Part shown: in pieces, positions 3,789 through 22,505 of the stretch
Position numbering within the stretch: the first letter of the stretch is position 1
Layout of the letters: every line of letters starts with the position of its first letter
IMG/VR virus record: IMGVR_UViG_2541047774_000009
Reading direction: 5' to 3' (one strand)
Origin: a virus
Lineage: Duplodnaviria > Heunggongvirae > Uroviricota > Caudoviricetes
Length of the DNA: 27,279 bases
Position numbers and translations under genes: made by a program
Notes under the pieces: generated by a model
The model's database searches: none
What the model was told of the DNA's origin: nothing
The model's input: the letters and a program-made list of their open reading frames with translations, nothing else

Positions 3789-3937
3789 CGTAGCCTGTTG
3801 GATCGCCGGAAAGGACCCGAAAAACGAGAATAATTATCACTTACAGCAAGAATCGAATCTGATCTATTATGGTGCTTGCTATTATGTGCCGGCACAAGTG
3901 CGTCGTTTACCGTCATTTCACACAGAGGCATCATCAA

Positions 3938-4879: not shown

Positions 4880-5359
4880 TTTTATTCCTACGGGTCTTAT
4901 TCTGACAATATATCCTGTGTTCCAGACTGCCACATCACCACATCCTGTGCCATTATCTGACTCACATTACATACATCGCATCGGGATACAGTAGTAGCAC
5001 TTTCTGTAATACAGCTTCCGGTTTCTTCCACCATCGCACCGGGATAAATCCGCGAATCATTAACGCGGTAAAAACCCGGTGTGCATCGTTTTTAATTATT
5101 CCCGCACACTCACGCAGAAGGAATTCCCCGTCGGGCTACGGTCATGGTTAATGCGGGAATACGGCGACGATACAGCGCAGCTAAAAGGGTAATGGACGGA
5201 TAGACCGGTTTATTTCATTCTACAGGATTCTGAGTGTCCCCAACTCCCTCCAATCGTCTGAGCTCACCTGTGTAGTTTTAATTTTCATCAATCCATTTAA
5301 CTATCGTTTAATTGTTGTCACATAGGATTCTGCCGTTTTTAACAATGCAGGATAATAAG

Positions 5360-5653
5360 ATGAAAAAAATGTTGTTTTCTGCCGCTCTGGCAATGCTTAT
5401 TACAGGATGTGCTCAACAGACGTTTACTGTTGGAAACAAACCGACAGCAGTAACACCAAAGGAAACCATCACCCATCATTTCTTCGTTTCGGGAATTGGG
5501 CAGAAGAAAACTGTCGATGCAGCAAAAATTTGTGGTGGTGCAGAAAATGTGGTTAAAACAGAAACCCAGCAAACATTCGTAAATGGATTGCTCGGTTTCA
5601 TCACTTTTGGCATTTATACTCCGCTGGAAGCGCGGGTGTATTGCTCAAAATAA
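5360..5653 (+). CDS. bor: Bor lipoprotein (serum-resistance outer-membrane lipoprotein, 97 aa)
   Basis: MKKMLFSAALAMLITGCAQQTFTVGNKPTAVTPKETITHHFFVSGIGQKKTVDAAKICGGAENVVKTETQQTFVNGLLGFITFGIYTPLEARVYCSK closely matches lambda Bor; oriented opposite to lysis genes as in lambda. Confidence 0.9.
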   Translation: MKKMLFSAALAMLITGCAQQTFTVGNKPTAVTPKETITHHFFVSGIGQKKTVDAAKICGGAENVVKTETQQTFVNGLLGFITFGIYTPLEARVYCSK

Positions 5654-5684: not shown

Positions 5685-6146
5685 CTATCTGCACTGCTCA
5701 TTAATATACTTCTGGGTTCCTTCCAGTTGTTTTTGCATAGTGATCAGCCTCTCTCTGAGGGTGAAATAATCCCGTTCAGCGGTGTCTGCCAGTCGGGGGG
5801 AGGCTGCATTATCCACGCCGGAGGCGGTGGTGGCTTCACGCACTGACTGACAGACTGCTTTGATGTGCAACCGACGACGACCAGCGGCAACATCATCACG
5901 CAGAGCATCATTTTCAGCTTTCGCATCAGCTAACTCCTTCGTGTATTTTGCATCGAGCGCAGCAACATCACGCTGACGCATCTGCATGTCAGTAATTGCC
6001 GCGTTCGCCAGCTTCAGTTCTCTGGCATTTTTGTCGCGCAGGGCTTTGTAGGCGATTGCGTTATCACGGTAATGATTAACAGCCCATGACAGGCAGACGA
6101 TGATGCAGATAACCAGAGCATAAATAATCGCGGCGACTCTGCTCAC
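5685..6146 (-). CDS. Rz: Rz i-spanin (153 aa, GTG start overlapping R stop)
   Basis: Translation from GTG at 6144-6146: (M)[59 protein letters not shown]... matches lambda Rz. Confidence 0.9.
5744..5926 (-). CDS. Rz1: Rz1 o-spanin lipoprotein (60 aa), embedded in Rz in +1 frame
   Basis: [60 protein letters not shown], lipobox VVGC and Pro-rich tract, near-identical to lambda Rz1; entirely inside Rz. Confidence 0.9.
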
Positions 6147-6676
6147 TGATCTATCCCCCAACAGGCTAATGCGCTTTCCTGGTCACGACGAATAACCTGT
6201 CCATAGCAGTTATTTGAACGTATGCGGCAATCGCGCCCACCATCTTTTATCCACCAGCGAATCGCCTCGCATGCACCTTTACGATCACCGGCATTCAGCC
6301 GCTTATAAAACGTCGACGGGAAACACTTACCGGGGCCAATGTTATAGGGACAAAATGACGCGATACCCGCTTTCTGTGGTTCGGTCAGTGGCACTTTAAT
6401 ATTGCGCTCCACCCATGCCAGCGCCTTATCCCGTTCAATGGCGTTAACCTGGTCGCATTTTTCCTTCGACAGTTTCATACCGGGAACAACGGGTTTTCCA
6501 TCCACCACCGTGGCACCCCGACAGATGGTCCAGATGCCGGAACCATCGCGGTATGCCGTTGTGTGGTTACCTTCTTTTTCATCCAGAAACTGGTCGAGAA
6601 TATCAGGCGCAGGCGCACCGACGGCAATCAGTGCCAGAACGGCAGCCGACAGGCCGTATCTGATTTTTGCGTTCAT
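6143..6676 (-). CDS. R: SAR endolysin (GH24 T4-lysozyme-like, 177 aa)
   Basis: N-terminal signal-arrest-release segment [16 protein letters not shown] followed by catalytic E-x8-D-x5-T triad ([16 protein letters not shown]); matches P21/933W-type R rather than lambda transglycosylase. Confidence 0.9.
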
Positions 6677-6781: not shown

Positions 6782-7054
6782 ATGGACAATAGCACCATTT
6801 CTCTACAGGAGTTGCTCGACTGCATTTCCAGGCTTCGGGATGATGTAAATGCCCTTACTGTCGCATTTTCATATCTGGCATTCTCAATTCCCAAGGAACA
6901 AATGCAACCAACACTGGCATCGCTCCAGCTTGAATCAATCAATCCCAAATGGTCCCAGCAACAACAAAATTCTTTCAAGTGGCTGGCGGTATTACTGGAG
7001 GAAAAATATGCTGGTGAAATTACCATTTCGGCGGAGTCTTCAGTGAACCAGTAA
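6782..7054 (+). CDS. Hypothetical small protein (90 aa), antisense to the lysis operon
   Basis: ATG at 6782 preceded by GAGAGGA (6767-6773); occupies a 343-nt gap between the DUF1327-like gene and R; 3' end overlaps DUF1327-like gene on the opposite strand by 35 nt; no family recognised. Confidence 0.35.
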   Translation: MDNSTISLQELLDCISRLRDDVNALTVAFSYLAFSIPKEQMQPTLASLQLESINPKWSQQQQNSFKWLAVLLEEKYAGEITISAESSVNQ

Positions 7055-7364
7055 TTCTTCCCGGCAGTTTTCCTTTGTAGGTTATCCACACACTCTGCGC
7101 CTCTAAAATTATGGGGCGCTTTTCCGGCGACTGCTCATCCCCTCCACATAACCCGGCAGCAACATCCAGGAAGACCTGTCTGATGCTCCTTCTGGCTGCT
7201 GCCTCATAAAACTCCAGCGCGGCACCTTCAACACGGTCCAGCGAGATGTCCAGGTCAAAAATTTCACCGTCAAAGCGTTCTTTGTCCTGTAATGCTAAAG
7301 TTACCGTAACTTTATTCTCAAAATTGCGGATCCCTTTCACAATCATTTCATAGTTTTGGACCAT
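7020..7364 (-). CDS. DUF1327-family phage protein (YdfR-like, 114 aa)
   Basis: MVQNYEMIVKGIRNFENKVTVTLALQDKERFDGEIFDL...; AGGAG RBS; sits between holin and endolysin as ydfR does in Qin-type prophages; start 4 nt after holin stop. Confidence 0.6.
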   Translation of the reverse strand: MVQNYEMIVKGIRNFENKVTVTLALQDKERFDGEIFDLDISLDRVEGAALEFYEAAARRSIRQVFLDVAAGLCGGDEQSPEKRPIILEAQSVWITYKGKLPGRITGSLKTPPKW

Positions 7365-7368
7365 TATA

Positions 7369-7584
7369 TTACTCTCCTCTCGCAGCCTTTCTTCTGTCTT
7401 CTCTGATTTTGAAGTACAGATTCGTCAGATAAGTCAGAAAGCCCAGAACCAGACTTCCCAGTACACCAATCGCAGCCCACTGAGACGGACTAACCTGATC
7501 AAGCCATTGTAAAAACCAGTAGCCAGCACTGCCTGCGGAGGTGCCGTAGGCAATGCCTGTTGATATTTTTTCCATCTGATACAT
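7369..7584 (-). CDS. S: Class II holin/pinholin, S21/EssD-like (71 aa) with dual-start motif
   Basis: [71 protein letters not shown] matches S21/EssD family; two in-frame ATGs (7584 and 7575) 3 codons apart; paired with SAR endolysin. Confidence 0.85.
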
Positions 7585-7693
7585 ATCCCGCCCCAACAGA
7601 CCTGTGCTACCGGAAAGAAAAAAGGCCATCAGCAAAACTCTGATGGCCTGAATCACCTTTACCAGTCATGTATGAAAAAATACGCACAACCAA

Positions 7694-7823
7694 TTGACAA
7701 TAATTATCATTTTCATTAAAAATACCGCGTAACATTCTTATTTCATGAAGAACCATACCCGCCAGCGACCTGAGTAGCAAAAGCTGTTCATCCCCCATAT
7801 TTTTGCTGGCGGGTTCTTTTTTC
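7694..7823 (+). ncRNA. Candidate small RNA transcription unit antisense to the late-operon leader
   Basis: Consensus -35 TTGACA at 7694-7699, A/T-rich -10 region 7717-7723, then 10-bp perfect GC-rich stem (ACCCGCCAGC 7757-7766 / GCTGGCGGGT 7805-7814) followed by TCTTTTTT; no ORF over 10 codons. Confidence 0.3.
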
Positions 7824-8049
7824 TACTGCCCTCCTCCCCAGGAAAAGCATTTCATTCTTTTCTCATTAATCGTTACTGGAGAGAAGGCGGGAAAAAGCCA
7901 GCTCTTTGGCCCTAAATAACAGCATGGCTTCAGTCCATACAGAATCTGATTTTCCAGCTCACATAATAACCAGATGATGCAGTTGCAAAATCTGGCAACA
8001 TCGGATTATTATGCGCCTGTGAAAATTTCTTCACGTTTTATTCCTTGCC

Positions 8050-8077
8050 GCCCGTGCCTCCCAGCGCGGGCTTTTTT
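8050..8077 (+). terminator. Plus-strand intrinsic terminator-like hairpin with T6 run
   Basis: GCCCGTG...CGCGGGC stem (one G-U pair) followed by TTTTTT at 8072-8077. Confidence 0.4.
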
Positions 8078-8081
8078 ATCC

Positions 8082-8107
8082 AAAAAATACCCCTCCGGAG
8101 AGGGGTA
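8082..8107 (-). terminator. Minus-strand intrinsic terminator (candidate tR'-like)
   Basis: Perfect 8-bp stem TACCCCTC/GAGGGGTA (8088-8095/8100-8107) with 4-nt loop, followed on the minus strand by a U6 run (plus-strand AAAAAA 8082-8087). Confidence 0.5.
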
Positions 8108-8396
8108 TCATACAAGGGGATGACCATGATGCATGGTGCCGGGTGCCTCCCGGTGAGTCCGGCATCAGCATACGAACCCGCGATTATCCCAGAACTGACT
8201 GCTGATTCGCCCCGCCGCTTAGGGGGATTCACCATGCGTTTTTTTATTTACAAACTCTTCGCCAGACAAACAACCATTAACTGGCTGAATTGTGAGGTAT
8301 TTCAATTTTTAGAAAACTGACCAACCTCCGCTTATACGCCGGGCATGGAGCGGATACAAAAAAGCCCCGCAAAAGCAGATCAGAAGGATTCGTTGT

Positions 8397-8436
8397 AAAA
8401 AAAAAGCTGTCAGATTATCGCGCTAATCTGACAGCT
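8397..8436 (-). terminator. Minus-strand intrinsic terminator downstream of methyltransferase gene
   Basis: Perfect 12-13 bp stem GCTGTCAGATTA/TAATCTGACAGC (8406-8417/8424-8435), 6-nt loop, followed on the minus strand by a U9 run (plus A-run 8397-8405). Confidence 0.6.
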
Positions 8437-8677
8437 ACAGCAGGTATCCAAAAACATGGGTGGAAACAATAAGTGAGTTAAGAAGACACGGTGTCGGATT
8501 TTTACCGATGAGCCGTTGGCGTGGTCAACCGTGACTCGCTTGTATCAACGATGAATTAATGAAGCCAATCCTTTGCAGGCTATGTACAACCCACCACATC
8601 AGCCCTGCTGCATTGCAGGATACACTGTATCTGTAATCATTATACGGCACAGACATCCCACCAATAATTGAATTAAT

Positions 8678-9769
8678 TCACAAAATTGTATTTGCTGATA
8701 ACATACTGATTTCCTGGATGGTCTGATTAAACCGCTCTGTCTCAAGCTCAACACCTAACGCCCGACGCCCCAGCGCCATTGCTGCTTTTATTGTGGAACC
8801 GGATCCCATAAAGAAATCAGCAACCAGATCGCCGGGTCGACTACTGGCATTGATTATTTGCCTGAGCATATCCGCCGGTTTCTCACACGGATGTTTACCC
8901 GGGTAGAACTGAACGGGTTTATGCATCCAGACATCGGTATAAGGCACGGAGACTGATACGGAGAAATAGCGCCGGAGAGATTTAAACTCATCCAGCAATT
9001 CAGAATATTTGCGATTCAGTGAATCATAAGATGCCACCAACTGGTGGTGTGGTTGTTCCAGTTGTTGTTCCTGAAACTTCTCTGCCGCTATACGGGAAAA
9101 CAGTGCCTGTAACTTCCGGTAGTCAGCCTCATTCGGCAACTGCCACTGACTGGCACCAAACCAGTGGGAAACCATATTTTTCTTACCTGTGGCTTCGGCA
9201 ATTTGTTTTGCCGTTATACCCAGTTCGGCACGAGCATCCCTGAAATACGATATCAGCGGTGCCATTATGTGCTGTTTGAGTTCCCTTTCTTTTGCCGCAT
9301 AGCCGTCACTTTTGCCGCGATATGGCCCCTGGTAATGTTCAGCAAACAGAACGCGCTCTGTGGCAGGAAAATATGCGCGCAGACTTTCTTTATTACACCC
9401 ATTCCAACGTCCGGACGGCTTCGCCCAGATGATATGGTTAAGCACGTTGAAACGTTCACGCATCATGATCTCAATATCAGATGCCAGGCGATGCCCACAG
9501 AACAGGTAAAGGCTTCCGGCTGGTTTCAGTACCCGCCAGAACTGGGCCAGACAGTGGTCCAGCCACTTCAGGTAATCTTCGTCCCCTTTCCACTGATTGT
9601 CCCAGCCGTTGGGCTTCACTTTGAAGTACGGCGGATCGGTAACAATCAGATCAATGGAGTTATCAGGCAGGGACTGAATAAAATGCAGGCAATCAGCGTT
9701 GATTAAATCAACACTGTTTATTTTTACAGTATTTTCATGGATCAGTAAGCGTAACTCTGGTAGGCTCAC
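8678..9769 (-). CDS. Orphan DNA methyltransferase, beta-class N6-adenine/N4-cytosine type (363 aa)
   Basis: Motif IV DPPY near N-terminus (LIVTDPPYF) and AdoMet motif I near C-terminus (DFFMGSGST): circularly permuted beta-class order; GTG start at 9769; no adjacent endonuclease gene. Confidence 0.8.
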   Translation of the reverse strand: MSLPELRLLIHENTVKINSVDLINADCLHFIQSLPDNSIDLIVTDPPYFKVKPNGWDNQWKGDEDYLKWLDHCLAQFWRVLKPAGSLYLFCGHRLASDIEIMMRERFNVLNHIIWAKPSGRWNGCNKESLRAYFPATERVLFAEHYQGPYRGKSDGYAAKERELKQHIMAPLISYFRDARAELGITAKQIAEATGKKNMVSHWFGASQWQLPNEADYRKLQALFSRIAAEKFQEQQLEQPHHQLVASYDSLNRKYSELLDEFKSLRRYFSVSVSVPYTDVWMHKPVQFYPGKHPCEKPADMLRQIINASSRPGDLVADFFMGSGSTIKAAMALGRRALGVELETERFNQTIQEISMLSANTIL

Positions 9770-10411: not shown

Positions 10412-11431
10412 TTGGATAAGTTTGATGAGATTCATGTAGACATTGAATCTGAGCAGCAAGCCTTCGATTTGCTTGAAAGCTATCTTGATGGTTATGGTTT
10501 ACCTGACAGTTTAAGTTTCAACGGATGGCCAAACCTTACCATCAGATTAACCGGTGAAAAATTCAACAGATCGCTAACACCTTCAGTTATGAAGGGATTT
10601 GTTGAAATGCAAGCTCAAATCAACAAATCATATGCCCTTGCCAAGTACGGTGTCCCTGACGTCCGCAAACTGACCAAAGAAGAACTTGATGCCCTAGAAA
10701 TAGAAGTTACGGTAGAACAGGGTTCTTCAATAGTAGAAATCAACATTGATGGCTTTTTAACCAAACTCACACAGGAACTTGTTGGTAAAATGAACGCAAC
10801 TGAGATCATGTTTACTGTTCTCGGCGCAGCAGTCATCTGGGGCGGAGTAACAGTATTTAAACGGTTCTTGGACAACCGTAAAGATATTCGCCTTGCAGAA
10901 ATTGCTAAGGATGGAGAGAAAGAACATCTCCGGACTATGCAGATCATGAGCGAGCAAGAAACTAAACGCCTGCGGGTTATTTCAGAAATGATTGCGGAAA
11001 AACCACTTCTCGATAACATGGACCGTATGTCGTATGACGCTAAAACCCAAATGGTCAAATCCTTTGTGCGTTCAGATAACGCTCAAATTGATGGCGTTAC
11101 TATTGATTCTGAAATGGCGAAAGAGTTGGTTACGAATGCTCGTAGACGTTCATCAGAAATGAGGATTGATGGTATTTACCGAATTGAAGAAGTCAATAAT
11201 ACTGACCCAGAGAGTTTCAAAGTTAAGGTCCGACGCGTAGATACCGACCAACGTCTAACCTGCGTAGTTCAGGATGTTTTCCTTGATGAATCCGGAAACA
11301 AAGAAGCATTGCAGCGAGCTGAGTGGGAAAGAAAGCCTGTACATTTGAGCATTAACGCAAAACACGTCGATGGTGACATTAAGTCAGCAGTAATTCTCTA
11401 TGTTCGAGATGTGGAACAAAAGCCCGAGTAA
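10412..11431 (+). CDS. Hypothetical membrane-anchored protein (339 aa, single central TM helix), lower-GC moron convergent with late genes
   Basis: TTG start with GAGGA 7 nt upstream; one hydrophobic helix (IMFTVLGAAVIWGGVTVF, residues about 133-150) separating two soluble domains; stop codon sits in the loop of a hairpin shared with the convergent Q gene; no catalytic motif recognised. Confidence 0.6.
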   Translation: MDKFDEIHVDIESEQQAFDLLESYLDGYGLPDSLSFNGWPNLTIRLTGEKFNRSLTPSVMKGFVEMQAQINKSYALAKYGVPDVRKLTKEELDALEIEVTVEQGSSIVEINIDGFLTKLTQELVGKMNATEIMFTVLGAAVIWGGVTVFKRFLDNRKDIRLAEIAKDGEKEHLRTMQIMSEQETKRLRVISEMIAEKPLLDNMDRMSYDAKTQMVKSFVRSDNAQIDGVTIDSEMAKELVTNARRRSSEMRIDGIYRIEEVNNTDPESFKVKVRRVDTDQRLTCVVQDVFLDESGNKEALQRAEWERKPVHLSINAKHVDGDIKSAVILYVRDVEQKPE

Positions 11432-11445: not shown

Positions 11446-11823
11446 TCAATCTTTAATTTCGGGGTCCATCTCTAGACTAATTTCCAGCATCGATAGGCAG
11501 CCATCAATAAACCCCTCAGCCATCTGTATCTCAATGCGTATTAGTTTCTCATCCTTTTTACGAGCCTTGGCGAGCTTTCTTTTAGAGATACCGTATAGGT
11601 AATGGGCAACAAGAAGCGAATGTTCGTCCGGCCTTTTTTGCCTTAGACGAGCAAGACAACCTTCAATAATTAATGCATCACTATCTGAACATGCCTGACG
11701 TGTTTTGCTTGTATAGGGAAGAAGCCCTTTAAACCCAGCAGCTATAGGAGAATAGTCTACTCCTGAACTATCACTCGCCGCCCATGCTCCCCAACGATCC
11801 AGAACCATTTGAATATCACGCAT
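11446..11823 (-). CDS. Late-gene antiterminator Q, phage-82/QuuD type (125 aa)
   Basis: MRDIQMVLDRWGAWAA...IAAGFKGL...C.D.DA.II.GC.ARL...LL..YY...KAEG.I.G.L..L.I.LEMD pattern matching QuuD/Q82 family; GGAGA RBS before ATG 11823. Confidence 0.8.
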   Translation of the reverse strand: MRDIQMVLDRWGAWAASDSSGVDYSPIAAGFKGLLPYTSKTRQACSDSDALIIEGCLARLRQKRPDEHSLLVAHYLYGISKRKLAKARKKDEKLIRIEIQMAEGFIDGCLSMLEISLEMDPEIKD

Positions 11824-11840
11824 CAACTTTCTCCACAAAA

Positions 11841-16571: not shown

Positions 16572-17400
16572 GACGATGCCCTCCGCTGATATTCAGGAGA
16601 CGGTGAATATGAAAATTAGCCTTATCCGCCAGACGAATACGTTCAGCTTGCAAGTTAAGAAGGGTTTCTACCAGAACCTGATGTGCCTGCGGATCCGAAA
16701 GAGTTACCTTGCGCAGAGCACGTAGTGCAGTTGTTACATAACTGAGTTTATGTAAGTCTTCATCATTCAGACGAGTGAGGGCTGGGACAGTAGCCATGAT
16801 GGCAGCCTCCGTATGCAATGGATAACTTCCACCACCGGAAACGCCAATTTCGCTGGTGGTGAACTGAGCAGGGTTGGCGTAACCGGCGCATACGGAAACC
16901 GGCGCACCTTTCGGTGCCCCCACCCAGCCCACCATAATTTGGGTATAGCTGAGTTGTAGCAACAAAAAAGACGCTAACGCGCCAATTGTCGCCGTATGCA
17001 ATTCCAGGACGCCAATCCCGGCACCCGCTTTATAAGGTGCCTGAACAGTGTAACGTCCCGGAATGGCAGAATCAATGTGCTGGTGGTCCTTCACACTCAA
17101 CAAAATCACGCCTGAATTTCCACAAAGGGCTAAAGCACTCATGCGGGTAGTCTTTGCGAAGATAGATAACGCGCTGTGTTTCTGGCTCCCAACGAATAAC
17201 ATGAACATAAAGTCCTCTTCCGTCACGAAACCAGCGGTTAAGTTCCTGCACAACTCGCCCCCCACAGTCAGGTAAAGTTCTCTGTGGTTACTTACAGCCA
17301 GGAGATTTGGTAATCTGCATTCATGCCGTAACAACAGGTGTTCAGCGACGCTGACCACCAGCTGTTGCGACAAACGGTTATTTGCCGTTAAACTGTTCAT
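16564..17400 (-). CDS. Hypothetical protein (278 aa)
   Basis: Long ORF tightly packed in early-right operon with ATGA overlap to upstream gene; no family recognised. Confidence 0.5.
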   Translation of the reverse strand: MNSLTANNRLSQQLVVSVAEHLLLRHECRLPNLLAVSNHRELYLTVGGELCRNLTAGFVTEEDFMFMLFVGSQKHSALSIFAKTTRMSALALCGNSGVILLSVKDHQHIDSAIPGRYTVQAPYKAGAGIGVLELHTATIGALASFLLLQLSYTQIMVGWVGAPKGAPVSVCAGYANPAQFTTSEIGVSGGGSYPLHTEAAIMATVPALTRLNDEDLHKLSYVTTALRALRKVTLSDPQAHQVLVETLLNLQAERIRLADKANFHIHRLLNISGGHRHA

Positions 17401-21638: not shown

Positions 21639-22505
21639 ATGAATCAAAATCCATTCTCATTCTATGACTTTCTTGGATATTTAATACCAGGTGGTTTTTT
21701 TATCCTATTAATGTATTTCTGTGGTTTGACATTCGATCTAGATATTGTTATTGACTTAAGTGAATTGCTCAGAGGTCAAAGTCAAATCTTTGGCATTTTG
21801 AACTACGCTTCAATAGTTATTATATCTTATATAGCTGGACATTTTATTTCTATCACGTCAGCATTTTTTATCGAAAAACACATGAATAAAGAATTAGGAT
21901 ATCCTTCCAAATATCTATTTAAAAAATTGATAGATACCTCAGAAAGCATTTGTAGCCCATCATGCGATGAGAGAAGCGCTGATAAAAAAACAAAAATAAA
22001 GAATCGCATAATCAAATGCGTATTATGCCCAATAATACTATGGGATTTTATAACACAAAAACTATGTTATTCTCAATCTCTACCATTTCATTTAGCTAAT
22101 ACAACATGGTTAATGATCAAAGAAGGTTATGAGAAAAAGTTCATAACAAATCGCCAATTATTACAAGATAAAAACGGACTTGATGATGATCTCTTCAGAT
22201 TGGCATATCATTATGTTTATGAGTTTTCAAAACAACATCAAACAAAAATTCAAAACTATGTTGCATTATATGGTTTTTGCAGAAACATATGTTTAATCTT
22301 TATAATTTCATTTTGGGTATCAGTTCCAACCTTTATTTATCGATTATGTACTCATAGTGATTATCTTTATAGTTTACTTTCAATAATGCTTAGCTTTTTC
22401 TTCGTCTATGTTTTCTATGTTGGTTTTGTTAAATTTTATAGAAGATATACTTTAGAAGTATTAATGGCATTTGCTGTACTTCAAAGTAACGACACTATTC
22501 GTTAA
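21639..22505 (+). CDS. Hypothetical multi-pass membrane protein (288 aa), AT-rich moron
   Basis: GGAGAG RBS before ATG 21639; at least five hydrophobic helices (e.g. FFILLMYFCGLTF, IFGILNYASIVIISYIAGHFISITSAFFI, CRNICLIFIISFWVSVPTFIY, LLSIMLSFFFVYVFYVGFV); very low GC relative to flanking phage DNA. Confidence 0.6.
   Translation: MNQNPFSFYDFLGYLIPGGFFILLMYFCGLTFDLDIVIDLSELLRGQSQIFGILNYASIVIISYIAGHFISITSAFFIEKHMNKELGYPSKYLFKKLIDTSESICSPSCDERSADKKTKIKNRIIKCVLCPIILWDFITQKLCYSQSLPFHLANTTWLMIKEGYEKKFITNRQLLQDKNGLDDDLFRLAYHYVYEFSKQHQTKIQNYVALYGFCRNICLIFIISFWVSVPTFIYRLCTHSDYLYSLLSIMLSFFFVYVFYVGFVKFYRRYTLEVLMAFAVLQSNDTIR

Follow-up and report, generated by a model that had tools for sequence, protein, structure and literature searches.

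The closest described counterparts of the element considered here are small RNAs encoded by prophages of Escherichia coli. PasA (85 nt) and PasC (79 nt) of EPEC strain E2348/69 are Northern-validated, Hfq-dependent RNAs whose genes are located between a nanS-p esterase gene and a class II holin gene, on the opposite strand (Pearl Mizrahi 2021). PasA itself extends from 743499 to 743415 on the minus strand of NC_011601, and the adjoining holin gene takes positions 743713-743919 on the plus strand. Other prophage small RNAs, EcOnc51-52, were reported by Tree 2014, and the group consisting of PasA, PasC and the EcOnc RNAs was also considered in the preprint of Zhu, Shabalina & Storz 2026. EcOnc52 of EHEC Sakai represents the same kind of unit, and the members of this group have been either Northern-validated or Hfq-crosslinked. 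PapR (RipA) of UPEC strain UTI89 is an opposite-strand small RNA activated by Lrp (Khandige 2015), and the stx1 promoter of Stx1 phages is regulated by Fur (Calderwood & Mekalanos 1987, cited in PMC7873438).

The window, i.e., the whole stretch of 27,279 nucleotides that was analysed, is a lambdoid E. coli prophage with its late genes on the minus strand, and near-identical copies were found in ExPEC and APEC chromosomes, for example, those of IHE3034, APEC O18 and PMV-1. The interval between Q and the holin gene contains a plus-strand open reading frame, a methyltransferase gene, an STnc100 element and an unannotated spacer of about 490 nt, and it is within this spacer, upstream of the holin, that the candidate unit is located (7694-7822, plus strand). 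The position is that of PasA, PasC and EcOnc51-52, which likewise occupy, opposite the late genes, the spacer that precedes a class II holin gene in lambdoid prophages; their RNAs have lengths of 80-90 nt, compared with about 93 nt predicted for the candidate. In our opinion, this cargo element of the holin-proximal spacer is probably a Fur-repressed gene whose product would be a non-coding RNA of about 93 nt. The coordinates of the features are collected in Table 1.

Table 1. Features of the holin-proximal region of the prophage (positions are those of the window).
Feature	Position	Strand	Remarks
Rz	5685-6161	-	
SAR-type endolysin	6143-6676	-	
YdfR/DUF1327 gene	7020-7364	-	
Class II (S21-type) holin, first lysis gene	7369-7584	-	73% identical to the holin adjoining PasA
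Late-strand intrinsic terminator	7649-7615 (hairpin 7649-7623)	-	10-bp stem and U6; the holin start is some 40 nt downstream
-35 hexamer TTGACA (consensus)	7694-7699	+	invariant in the five sequence types
Fur operator	7695-7714		overlaps the -35 and the spacer; 7-1-7 motif 7695-7709, 19-mer 7696-7714
-10 element	TAAAAA 7717-7722 or AAAAAT 7718-7723	+	spacer of 17 nt or 18 nt, respectively; either 4/6
Predicted small RNA, about 93 nt	7730-7822	+	5' end (7729-7731) expected from promoter geometry; 3' end in the U-run
Terminator hairpin	7757-7814	+	outer stem of 12 bp (7757-7768 / 7803-7814), 8 G-C pairs
Inner hairpin, 8 bp	7771-7790	+	inside the outer stem
Conserved single-stranded stretch UCCCCCAUAUUU, 12 nt	7791-7802	+	candidate seed
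U-tail UCUUUUUU	7815-7822	+	expected 3' end, candidate Hfq-binding tail
STnc100 RNA element	8266-8078	-	114.5 bits (Rfam)
DNA methyltransferase gene	8678-9769		
Q	11446-11838	-	Pfam PF06530, E = 2e-52

Several other elements of the window deserve mention. The plus-strand frame between Q and the holin (339 aa, 10412-11431) is convergent with Q and ends 15 nt from the Q stop codon; it gives only a sub-threshold Pfam match, fills the position normally taken by the late promoter after Q and is missing from the otherwise similar prophage of IHE3034. The STnc100 element was considered as a leader of the pR'/tR' late-promoter type, and this assignment was rejected, since the Stx2 phage F004 has the element between stx2B and yjhS, a long way from Q. 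A second, weak STnc100-like match (8445-8652, minus strand, 17.6 bits) is followed by a 13-bp terminator at 8436-8405. On the opposite strand to Rz and just downstream of it, there is iss, a bor homologue encoding a serum-survival lipoprotein (5312-5653, plus strand). A C4 antisense RNA (16852-16939, minus strand, 80.7 bits) adjoins an isrK RNA (16964-17040, minus strand, 61.2 bits), and such a side-by-side arrangement is that of the immunity or anti-Q regions of P1/P7-type and Gifsy-type elements. No tRNA genes were found in the window.

The first-pass annotation of this DNA had pointed to a consensus -35 hexamer and an A/T-rich -10 on the plus strand, followed about 35 nt later by a perfect GC-rich stem of 10 bp and a T-run, and all these elements are present, the two readings of the -10 together covering 7717-7723. 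In the 10-bp stem, ACCCGCCAGC (7757-7766) pairs with GCTGGCGGGT (7805-7814), starting 34 nt past the -10, and the arms are some 37-38 nt apart (7767-7804); one G.U and one A-U pair extend the stem to 12 bp, and this longer version encloses 34 nt. The order of elements, a GC-rich stem and then the U-run, is that of an intrinsic terminator with an atypically large enclosed segment, and the minus-strand side has no U-run. A simple terminator scan missed this hairpin because it admits only loops of 3-8 nt. The plus-strand fold has an energy of -29.7 kcal/mol and z = -4.98, with none of 200 shuffles equally good, and z for the minus-strand fold is -1.93. Searching of 7694-7823 against Rfam gave no family, either at gathering thresholds or at E up to 10.

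The anatomy of the unit is shared in many respects with the validated RNAs. PasA, PasC and EcOnc52 also have a consensus TTGACA, which is common to them and to the Stx-phage relatives discussed below, an A-rich -10, the motif GCCAGC in the 5' arm of the terminator, an unusually large loop, a U-run and a late-strand terminator before the holin. The total given to the candidate by a promoter scanner is 10/12. The -10 element CATTAAAA(A) is kept in all sequence types of the unit and in the Stx-phage relatives; a T at its last position is obtained only in the AAAAAT reading with the 18-nt spacer, and the other types are without that T. Four promoter-like sites were found in the region against 4.1 expected by chance and, therefore, the promoter call requires support from outside.

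The same annotation had seen no meaningful open reading frame here, and this holds, the frames of 10 codons, 63 aa and 38 aa being unconvincing. The 10-codon frame (7745-7777) has no Shine-Dalgarno sequence; it is preserved, with changes mostly at the amino-acid level. The 63-aa frame on the minus strand (7607-7798) passes through the hairpin and the Fur box and is probably no gene: it lacks a Pfam match, and the other types have kept neither its start codon nor its frame. A "hypothetical protein" is annotated under this stretch in some RefSeq genomes and may be the same 63-aa frame. The 38-aa plus-strand frame (7803-7919) is broken by indels. Taken together, 7694-7822 on the plus strand is a predicted self-contained promoter-to-terminator unit opposite the late genes, as had been proposed for a transcript of about 90 nt, and PasA, PasC and EcOnc52 provide validated examples in the same slot and on the same strand.

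The taxonomic distribution of the unit is narrow, and its abundance within this range is high. A 241-nt region covering it was found in 1,427 of 5,426 complete E. coli genomes (about 26%), and the copies counted in E. coli numbered 1,558 in 1,508 records, 643 of them on plasmids; retention of the unit was noted in about 1,390 records, with about 640 plasmid copies. The same region is present in 574 plasmids of PLSDB, 537 of them conjugative, with Escherichia (531), Klebsiella (21), Salmonella (17) and Shigella (5) as hosts. No match to it was obtained in the phage collection at blastn sensitivity. Among species-representative genomes, the hairpin pattern gave no matches, and the promoter pattern gave, apart from chance matches in Clostridia, only copies in Shigella and E. 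coli. The copies fall into five sequence types, which are 15-20% divergent: type A of the window prophage, type B of pathogenicity islands adjoining pap, type C of ColV-type plasmids, where it lies between iss and iro, type D of a prophage with an ArtAB-like toxin and type E of Shigella flexneri. The block kept by ColV plasmids consists of iss, a remnant of Rz and the small RNA unit.

Mean pairwise identity among the five types is 88% in the promoter with the Fur box, 79% in the 5' tail of the RNA, 88% in the 5' stem arm, 95% in the inner hairpin, 93% in the single-stranded stretch and 98% in the 3' arm with the U-run. It equals 71% just upstream of the -35, 68% in the first segment after the U-run (7824-7860) and 52% in the next one (7861-7883); because identity drops on both flanks, the edges of the conserved block coincide with those of the predicted gene. 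The stem and the U-tail are kept in all five types, type C (ColV) having one A.C mismatch in the stem. The RNAalifold consensus contains 26 pairs, none with compensatory changes; three of them alternate between A-U and G.U, and the inner helix has two invariant pairs (G.U and U.G), these pairs being valid only on the plus strand. The predicted structure is, thus, supported only by conservation. The most conserved unpaired stretch, GUUCAUCCCC(C/A)AUAUUUUU (7787-7804), together with the 5' stem arm would be the likeliest surface for pairing with other RNAs. The family is young and restricted to Escherichia, Shigella and plasmids seen in Klebsiella and Salmonella, so that its conservation has limited weight, and a part of it could stem from recent ancestry or hitch-hiking with iss.

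Besides the plus-strand fold and the edges of the conserved block, a Fur operator raises the unit above chance expectation. The 7-1-7 motif TGACAATAATTATCA has one mismatch to TGATAATNATTATCA, with 0.2 matches with two or fewer mismatches being expected per window. The 19-mer agrees with GATAATGATAATCATTATC in 16 of 19 positions and is the best match of the window, a score of 16 being reached in 6 of 200 block shuffles; on the same consensus, 13 ChIP-verified Fur sites in CFT073-specific genes score 14-17 of 19. The next-best Fur-like sites of the window are 22353-22371 (15/19) and 3825-3839 (two mismatches to the 7-1-7 motif).

Strain CFT073 has a copy of the unit that is about 83% identical, its TTGACA starting at NC_004431.1:3440893; papI, an IS3 element and a remnant of Rz are its neighbours on one side, and an ISL3 remnant adjoins it on the other side. 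In Table S5 of Banerjee et al. 2020 (PMC7157518), a Fur ChIP-seq peak with an amplitude of 3620, assigned to "c3597 transposase", is placed at 3440893, i.e., exactly at the first base of the homologous TTGACA. The amplitudes given in this table for iroN (2115), irp2 (2150) and iroB (1125) are all lower. No other strong Fur box was found near the peak within a 5-kb stretch, and the searched portions of PMC7157518 and its supplements contain no link from this peak to an RNA. The homologous promoter of CFT073 is occupied by Fur in living cells, this being an observation on the CFT073 homologue and not on the window copy. An operator of this kind, occupied in vivo in CFT073, points to iron-responsive rather than lysogeny-linked expression of the unit. 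PMC7157518 lists a second very strong CFT073 peak, assigned to c4561, at about NC_004431.1 4333067 with an amplitude of 1730; it is situated past the 3' end of a hypothetical gene, on the downstream side, and no match to the covariance model of the candidate was found there. The Fur-repressed CFT073 genes of unknown function c1255 and c2412 were considered as well and are not the candidate element.

Relatives of the unit in Stx phages suggest how the operator could have arisen. A search with the covariance model of the candidate gave a unit with 19.9 bits (E = 0.02 in 69 kb) in the Stx2 phage F004, and its location and strand correspond to those of the candidate. This unit has no name, adjoins nanS-p (yjhS) in, for example, F004, Min27, PA2 and BP-4795 and was found in 252 phage records, and its variants keep a CCGCCAG / CTGGCGG stem. 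Its promoter, which in F004 lies outside the covariance model, is identical to that of the candidate in 24 of 29 positions (TTGACAATAA-6 nt-TTTTCATTAAAAA), and the stem arms CCGCCAGCG / CGCTGGCGG, the U-run and the strand relative to the late genes are also the same. The differences concern the loop, which has 11-13 nt, the 5' half of the RNA, which is unrelated, and six bases of the promoter spacer, GAACTG in place of TTATCA, so that the Stx-phage promoter has six mismatches to the 7-1-7 motif. It is precisely these six positions, TTATCA in the candidate, that make its Fur operator complete.

These relatives bear on the view that there is no RNA gene here at all, the hairpin with its U-run being a plus-strand terminator or insulator against stray antisense transcription into the cargo, and TTGACA and the Fur box being fortuitous or orphan. 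The chance frequency of promoter-like sites, the weak -10 and the absence of covariation among the 26 pairs agree with such a view, as does the fact that many ChIP peaks are non-regulatory and that the searched portions of Banerjee et al. 2020 tie the peak in question to no regulated gene. Nevertheless, we consider it unlikely, because the promoter and the stem arms were inherited together, with equal spacing, in the Stx-phage relatives, members of the family with the same type of promoter are expressed, conservation runs exactly from the promoter to the U-run, and there is no upstream plus-strand gene needing termination at this place.

The first-pass annotation had also regarded the transcript as antisense to the 5' leader of the S/R/Rz message. 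It does lie opposite the late strand, but the place is a spacer inside the late operon, with Q 3.6 kb upstream. The further suggestion was antisense control of lysis-gene expression in the lysogen. Such a cis-antisense RNA would pair with the late transcript just upstream of the holin and restrain or time the synthesis of holin, endolysin and Rz, be it in the lysogen or on induction, and this appears to us quite improbable. It is true that Q and the late genes share the minus strand, so that any late transcript must traverse 7730-7822 and would be perfectly complementary to the RNA there, that the equivalent slot of other phages also carries opposite-strand small RNAs and that the partners of PasA in RIL-seq include adjacent phage RNAs. 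However, the overlap (7730-7822) is separated from the holin start at 7584 by 146-238 nt on the upstream side and leaves the holin ribosome-binding site uncovered, the RNA would be transcribed away from the holin, and a strong late-strand terminator, which already guards the holin, separates the two. The features of a cis-antisense RNA were not found: there is no overlap with the start or the coding region, and the unit does not always stand alongside the target gene. Fur control, in addition, has no obvious connection to lysogeny.

The copies without lysis genes provide a natural experiment that counts against antisense control. Those examined from pathogenicity islands (type B) and ColV plasmids (type C) keep the unit and have lost the holin and endolysin genes by deletion, homology to the window ending just beyond the late-strand terminator. 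This terminator is intact in types A, D and E, in which the holin is present. It is decayed in the other two, where it has gathered mismatches, its U-run is shortened and its fold has -13 to -15 kcal/mol versus -19 to -26 kcal/mol next to the holin. The plus-strand unit is intact in type B, in which Fur binds in vivo. Since, in the absence of the holin, the terminator decays and the plus-strand unit is kept, the function of the former appears to be tied to the holin and that of the latter does not. Antisense control of holin and endolysin in the lysogen is, therefore, not supported, in view of the overlap that misses the ribosome-binding site, of the unit outliving the lysis genes and of the Fur operator of the promoter.

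The same decay bears on yet another explanation, in which the functional product is a small RNA of the minus strand, about 60-75 nt long (from about 7690 to 7615) and driven by the region that Fur binds, with GUAAAGGUGAUUCAGG as its seed and 7649-7623 as its terminator. A weak SgrS-like Rfam match (7618-7714, minus strand, 24.8 bits, E = 2e-4 in a 1.4-kb search), the invariance of the block GUAAAGGUGAUUCAGG (7650-7661) in all types and the classic layout of a seed plus terminator are in its favor. The score is below the Rfam gathering threshold of 37, neither a scan nor manual reading gave an acceptable minus-strand -35/-10 near the Fur box, and the terminator in question, unlike its plus-strand counterpart, is decayed in types B and C; we regard this explanation as very improbable. 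The segment 7615-7690 of the minus strand could be a small RNA derived from a 3' end of the late strand.

The Fur-repressed plus-strand small RNA gene thus stays the preferred reading, and it would work as follows. In the presence of iron, Fur would bind 7695-7714 and block the promoter. In iron starvation, transcription from the consensus -35 and the A-rich -10 would start at about 7730 and stop at the intrinsic terminator, in the U-run at about 7820-7822, to give an RNA of about 93 nt, in which a long-range stem encloses a small hairpin and the conserved C/U-rich single strand. Such an RNA would most likely work in trans through base pairing and probably with the aid of Hfq, like its positional relatives PasA, PasC, EcOnc52 and PapR. 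Pairing with the overlapping late transcript would be geometrically unavoidable and is probably incidental; an effect through the Q-modified late transcript, whenever both RNAs are present, would be secondary at most. Since copies also occur, in roughly one of four complete E. coli genomes, on virulence islands and on ColV plasmids, the unit probably acts on the host rather than on the timing of phage lysis. The observations proper are the sequence features and their conservation, the binding of Fur to the CFT073 promoter and the persistence of the unit where the lysis genes are gone; the production of the RNA, its exact ends, its dependence on Hfq and its action in trans are inferred.

RNAduplex scans for targets in the window and in selected loci gave only the cis site and noise. 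In type A, the RNA is complementary to papI, GAACCAUACC (7750-7759) matching papI nt 136-145 and CCGCCAGCG (7759-7767) matching papI nt 80-88, which falls inside nt 74-96, the segment of papI reported to pair with PapR. Other types do not conserve the 10-mer, and pairing of the 9-mer needs G7767, which is A in most copies; this complementarity was noticed post hoc and may be due to chance. Keyword searches of the literature for a Fur-regulated small RNA of ExPEC, APEC or ColV plasmids gave nothing relevant, and a search with sequence strings found no paper that prints the candidate or its Stx-phage relative.

To our knowledge, RyhB is the sole Fur-controlled small RNA of E. coli. It may be that the unit described here is a second, mobile Fur-repressed riboregulator of this species, unrelated to RyhB, which arose in the holin-proximal slot through six spacer bases and spread to islands (with pap) and ColV plasmids (with iss and iro); we offer this broader proposal tentatively and rate its chances at somewhat less than even. 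If it is true, the very strong CFT073 Fur ChIP peak assigned to a transposase would be accounted for by a mobile Fur-repressed RNA, and iron starvation of the host would be linked to the control of virulence or fimbrial genes. Iron starvation is the main signal for extraintestinal E. coli in blood and urine. The unit would then be a transferable piece of the iron regulon that prophages, islands and conjugative ColV plasmids carry along with iss, iro and pap. It would also illustrate that a phage small RNA gene can gain the operator of a host regulator through a few changes in its promoter spacer.

A comparison with the known systems places the candidate near, and apart from, each of them. Unlike PasA and PasC, whose promoters have no Fur box, it has an insert of 34-37 nt with an inner hairpin between the stem arms, and the seed of PasA is the 5' stem arm. 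It occurs mainly in ExPEC and APEC prophages, pathogenicity islands and ColV plasmids, not in EPEC and EHEC as PasA, PasC and the EcOnc RNAs do. Sensitive blastn of 7369-8300 against PasA and PasC aligns only the holin, and the covariance model of the candidate gives no match to them at E up to 10. The Stx-phage unit shares the short motifs GCCAGCGTCC and TTTTTTTATNATGC, the latter in the 3' flank, with PasC. Any link between the candidate and PasA or PasC would run only through this intermediate, and the short motifs concerned suggest that the candidate may be a diverged branch of this group of phage small RNAs that gained Fur control.

PapR belongs to the same cargo region of prophages and is also encoded on the opposite strand; it differs from the candidate in sequence and in being controlled by Lrp and not by Fur. 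A second opposite-strand unit of the window (7983-8078, plus strand) is located 200 nt from the candidate and has a PapR-like 3' half. It comprises a promoter-like TTGCAA-18-TATTAT (7983-8012) and a terminator GCCCGTGCCTCCCAGCGCGGGC with a T-run (8050-8077), and its part 8030-8078 matches the 3' end of UTI89 PapR/RipA, as rebuilt from published primers, minus a 7-nt repeat. This second unit is convergent with the STnc100 terminator, as in UTI89, and the 5' part of UTI89 PapR is absent from it.

The stx1 promoter resembles that of the candidate in being a Fur-controlled promoter placed where lambdoid phages carry their late-region cargo; unlike the candidate, it drives toxin genes on the late strand, and no sequence similarity between the two was found in the phage collection. 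With regard to RyhB, its Rfam model gave no match over 7300-8700 at E up to 10, and it belongs to the core genome of E. coli, whereas the candidate is found in mobile elements and is similar to RyhB neither in sequence nor in structure. The likeness of the two lies in their organization: a Fur operator over a sigma-70 promoter, an RNA of about 90 nt, an intrinsic terminator and expression that would be expected only in iron starvation.
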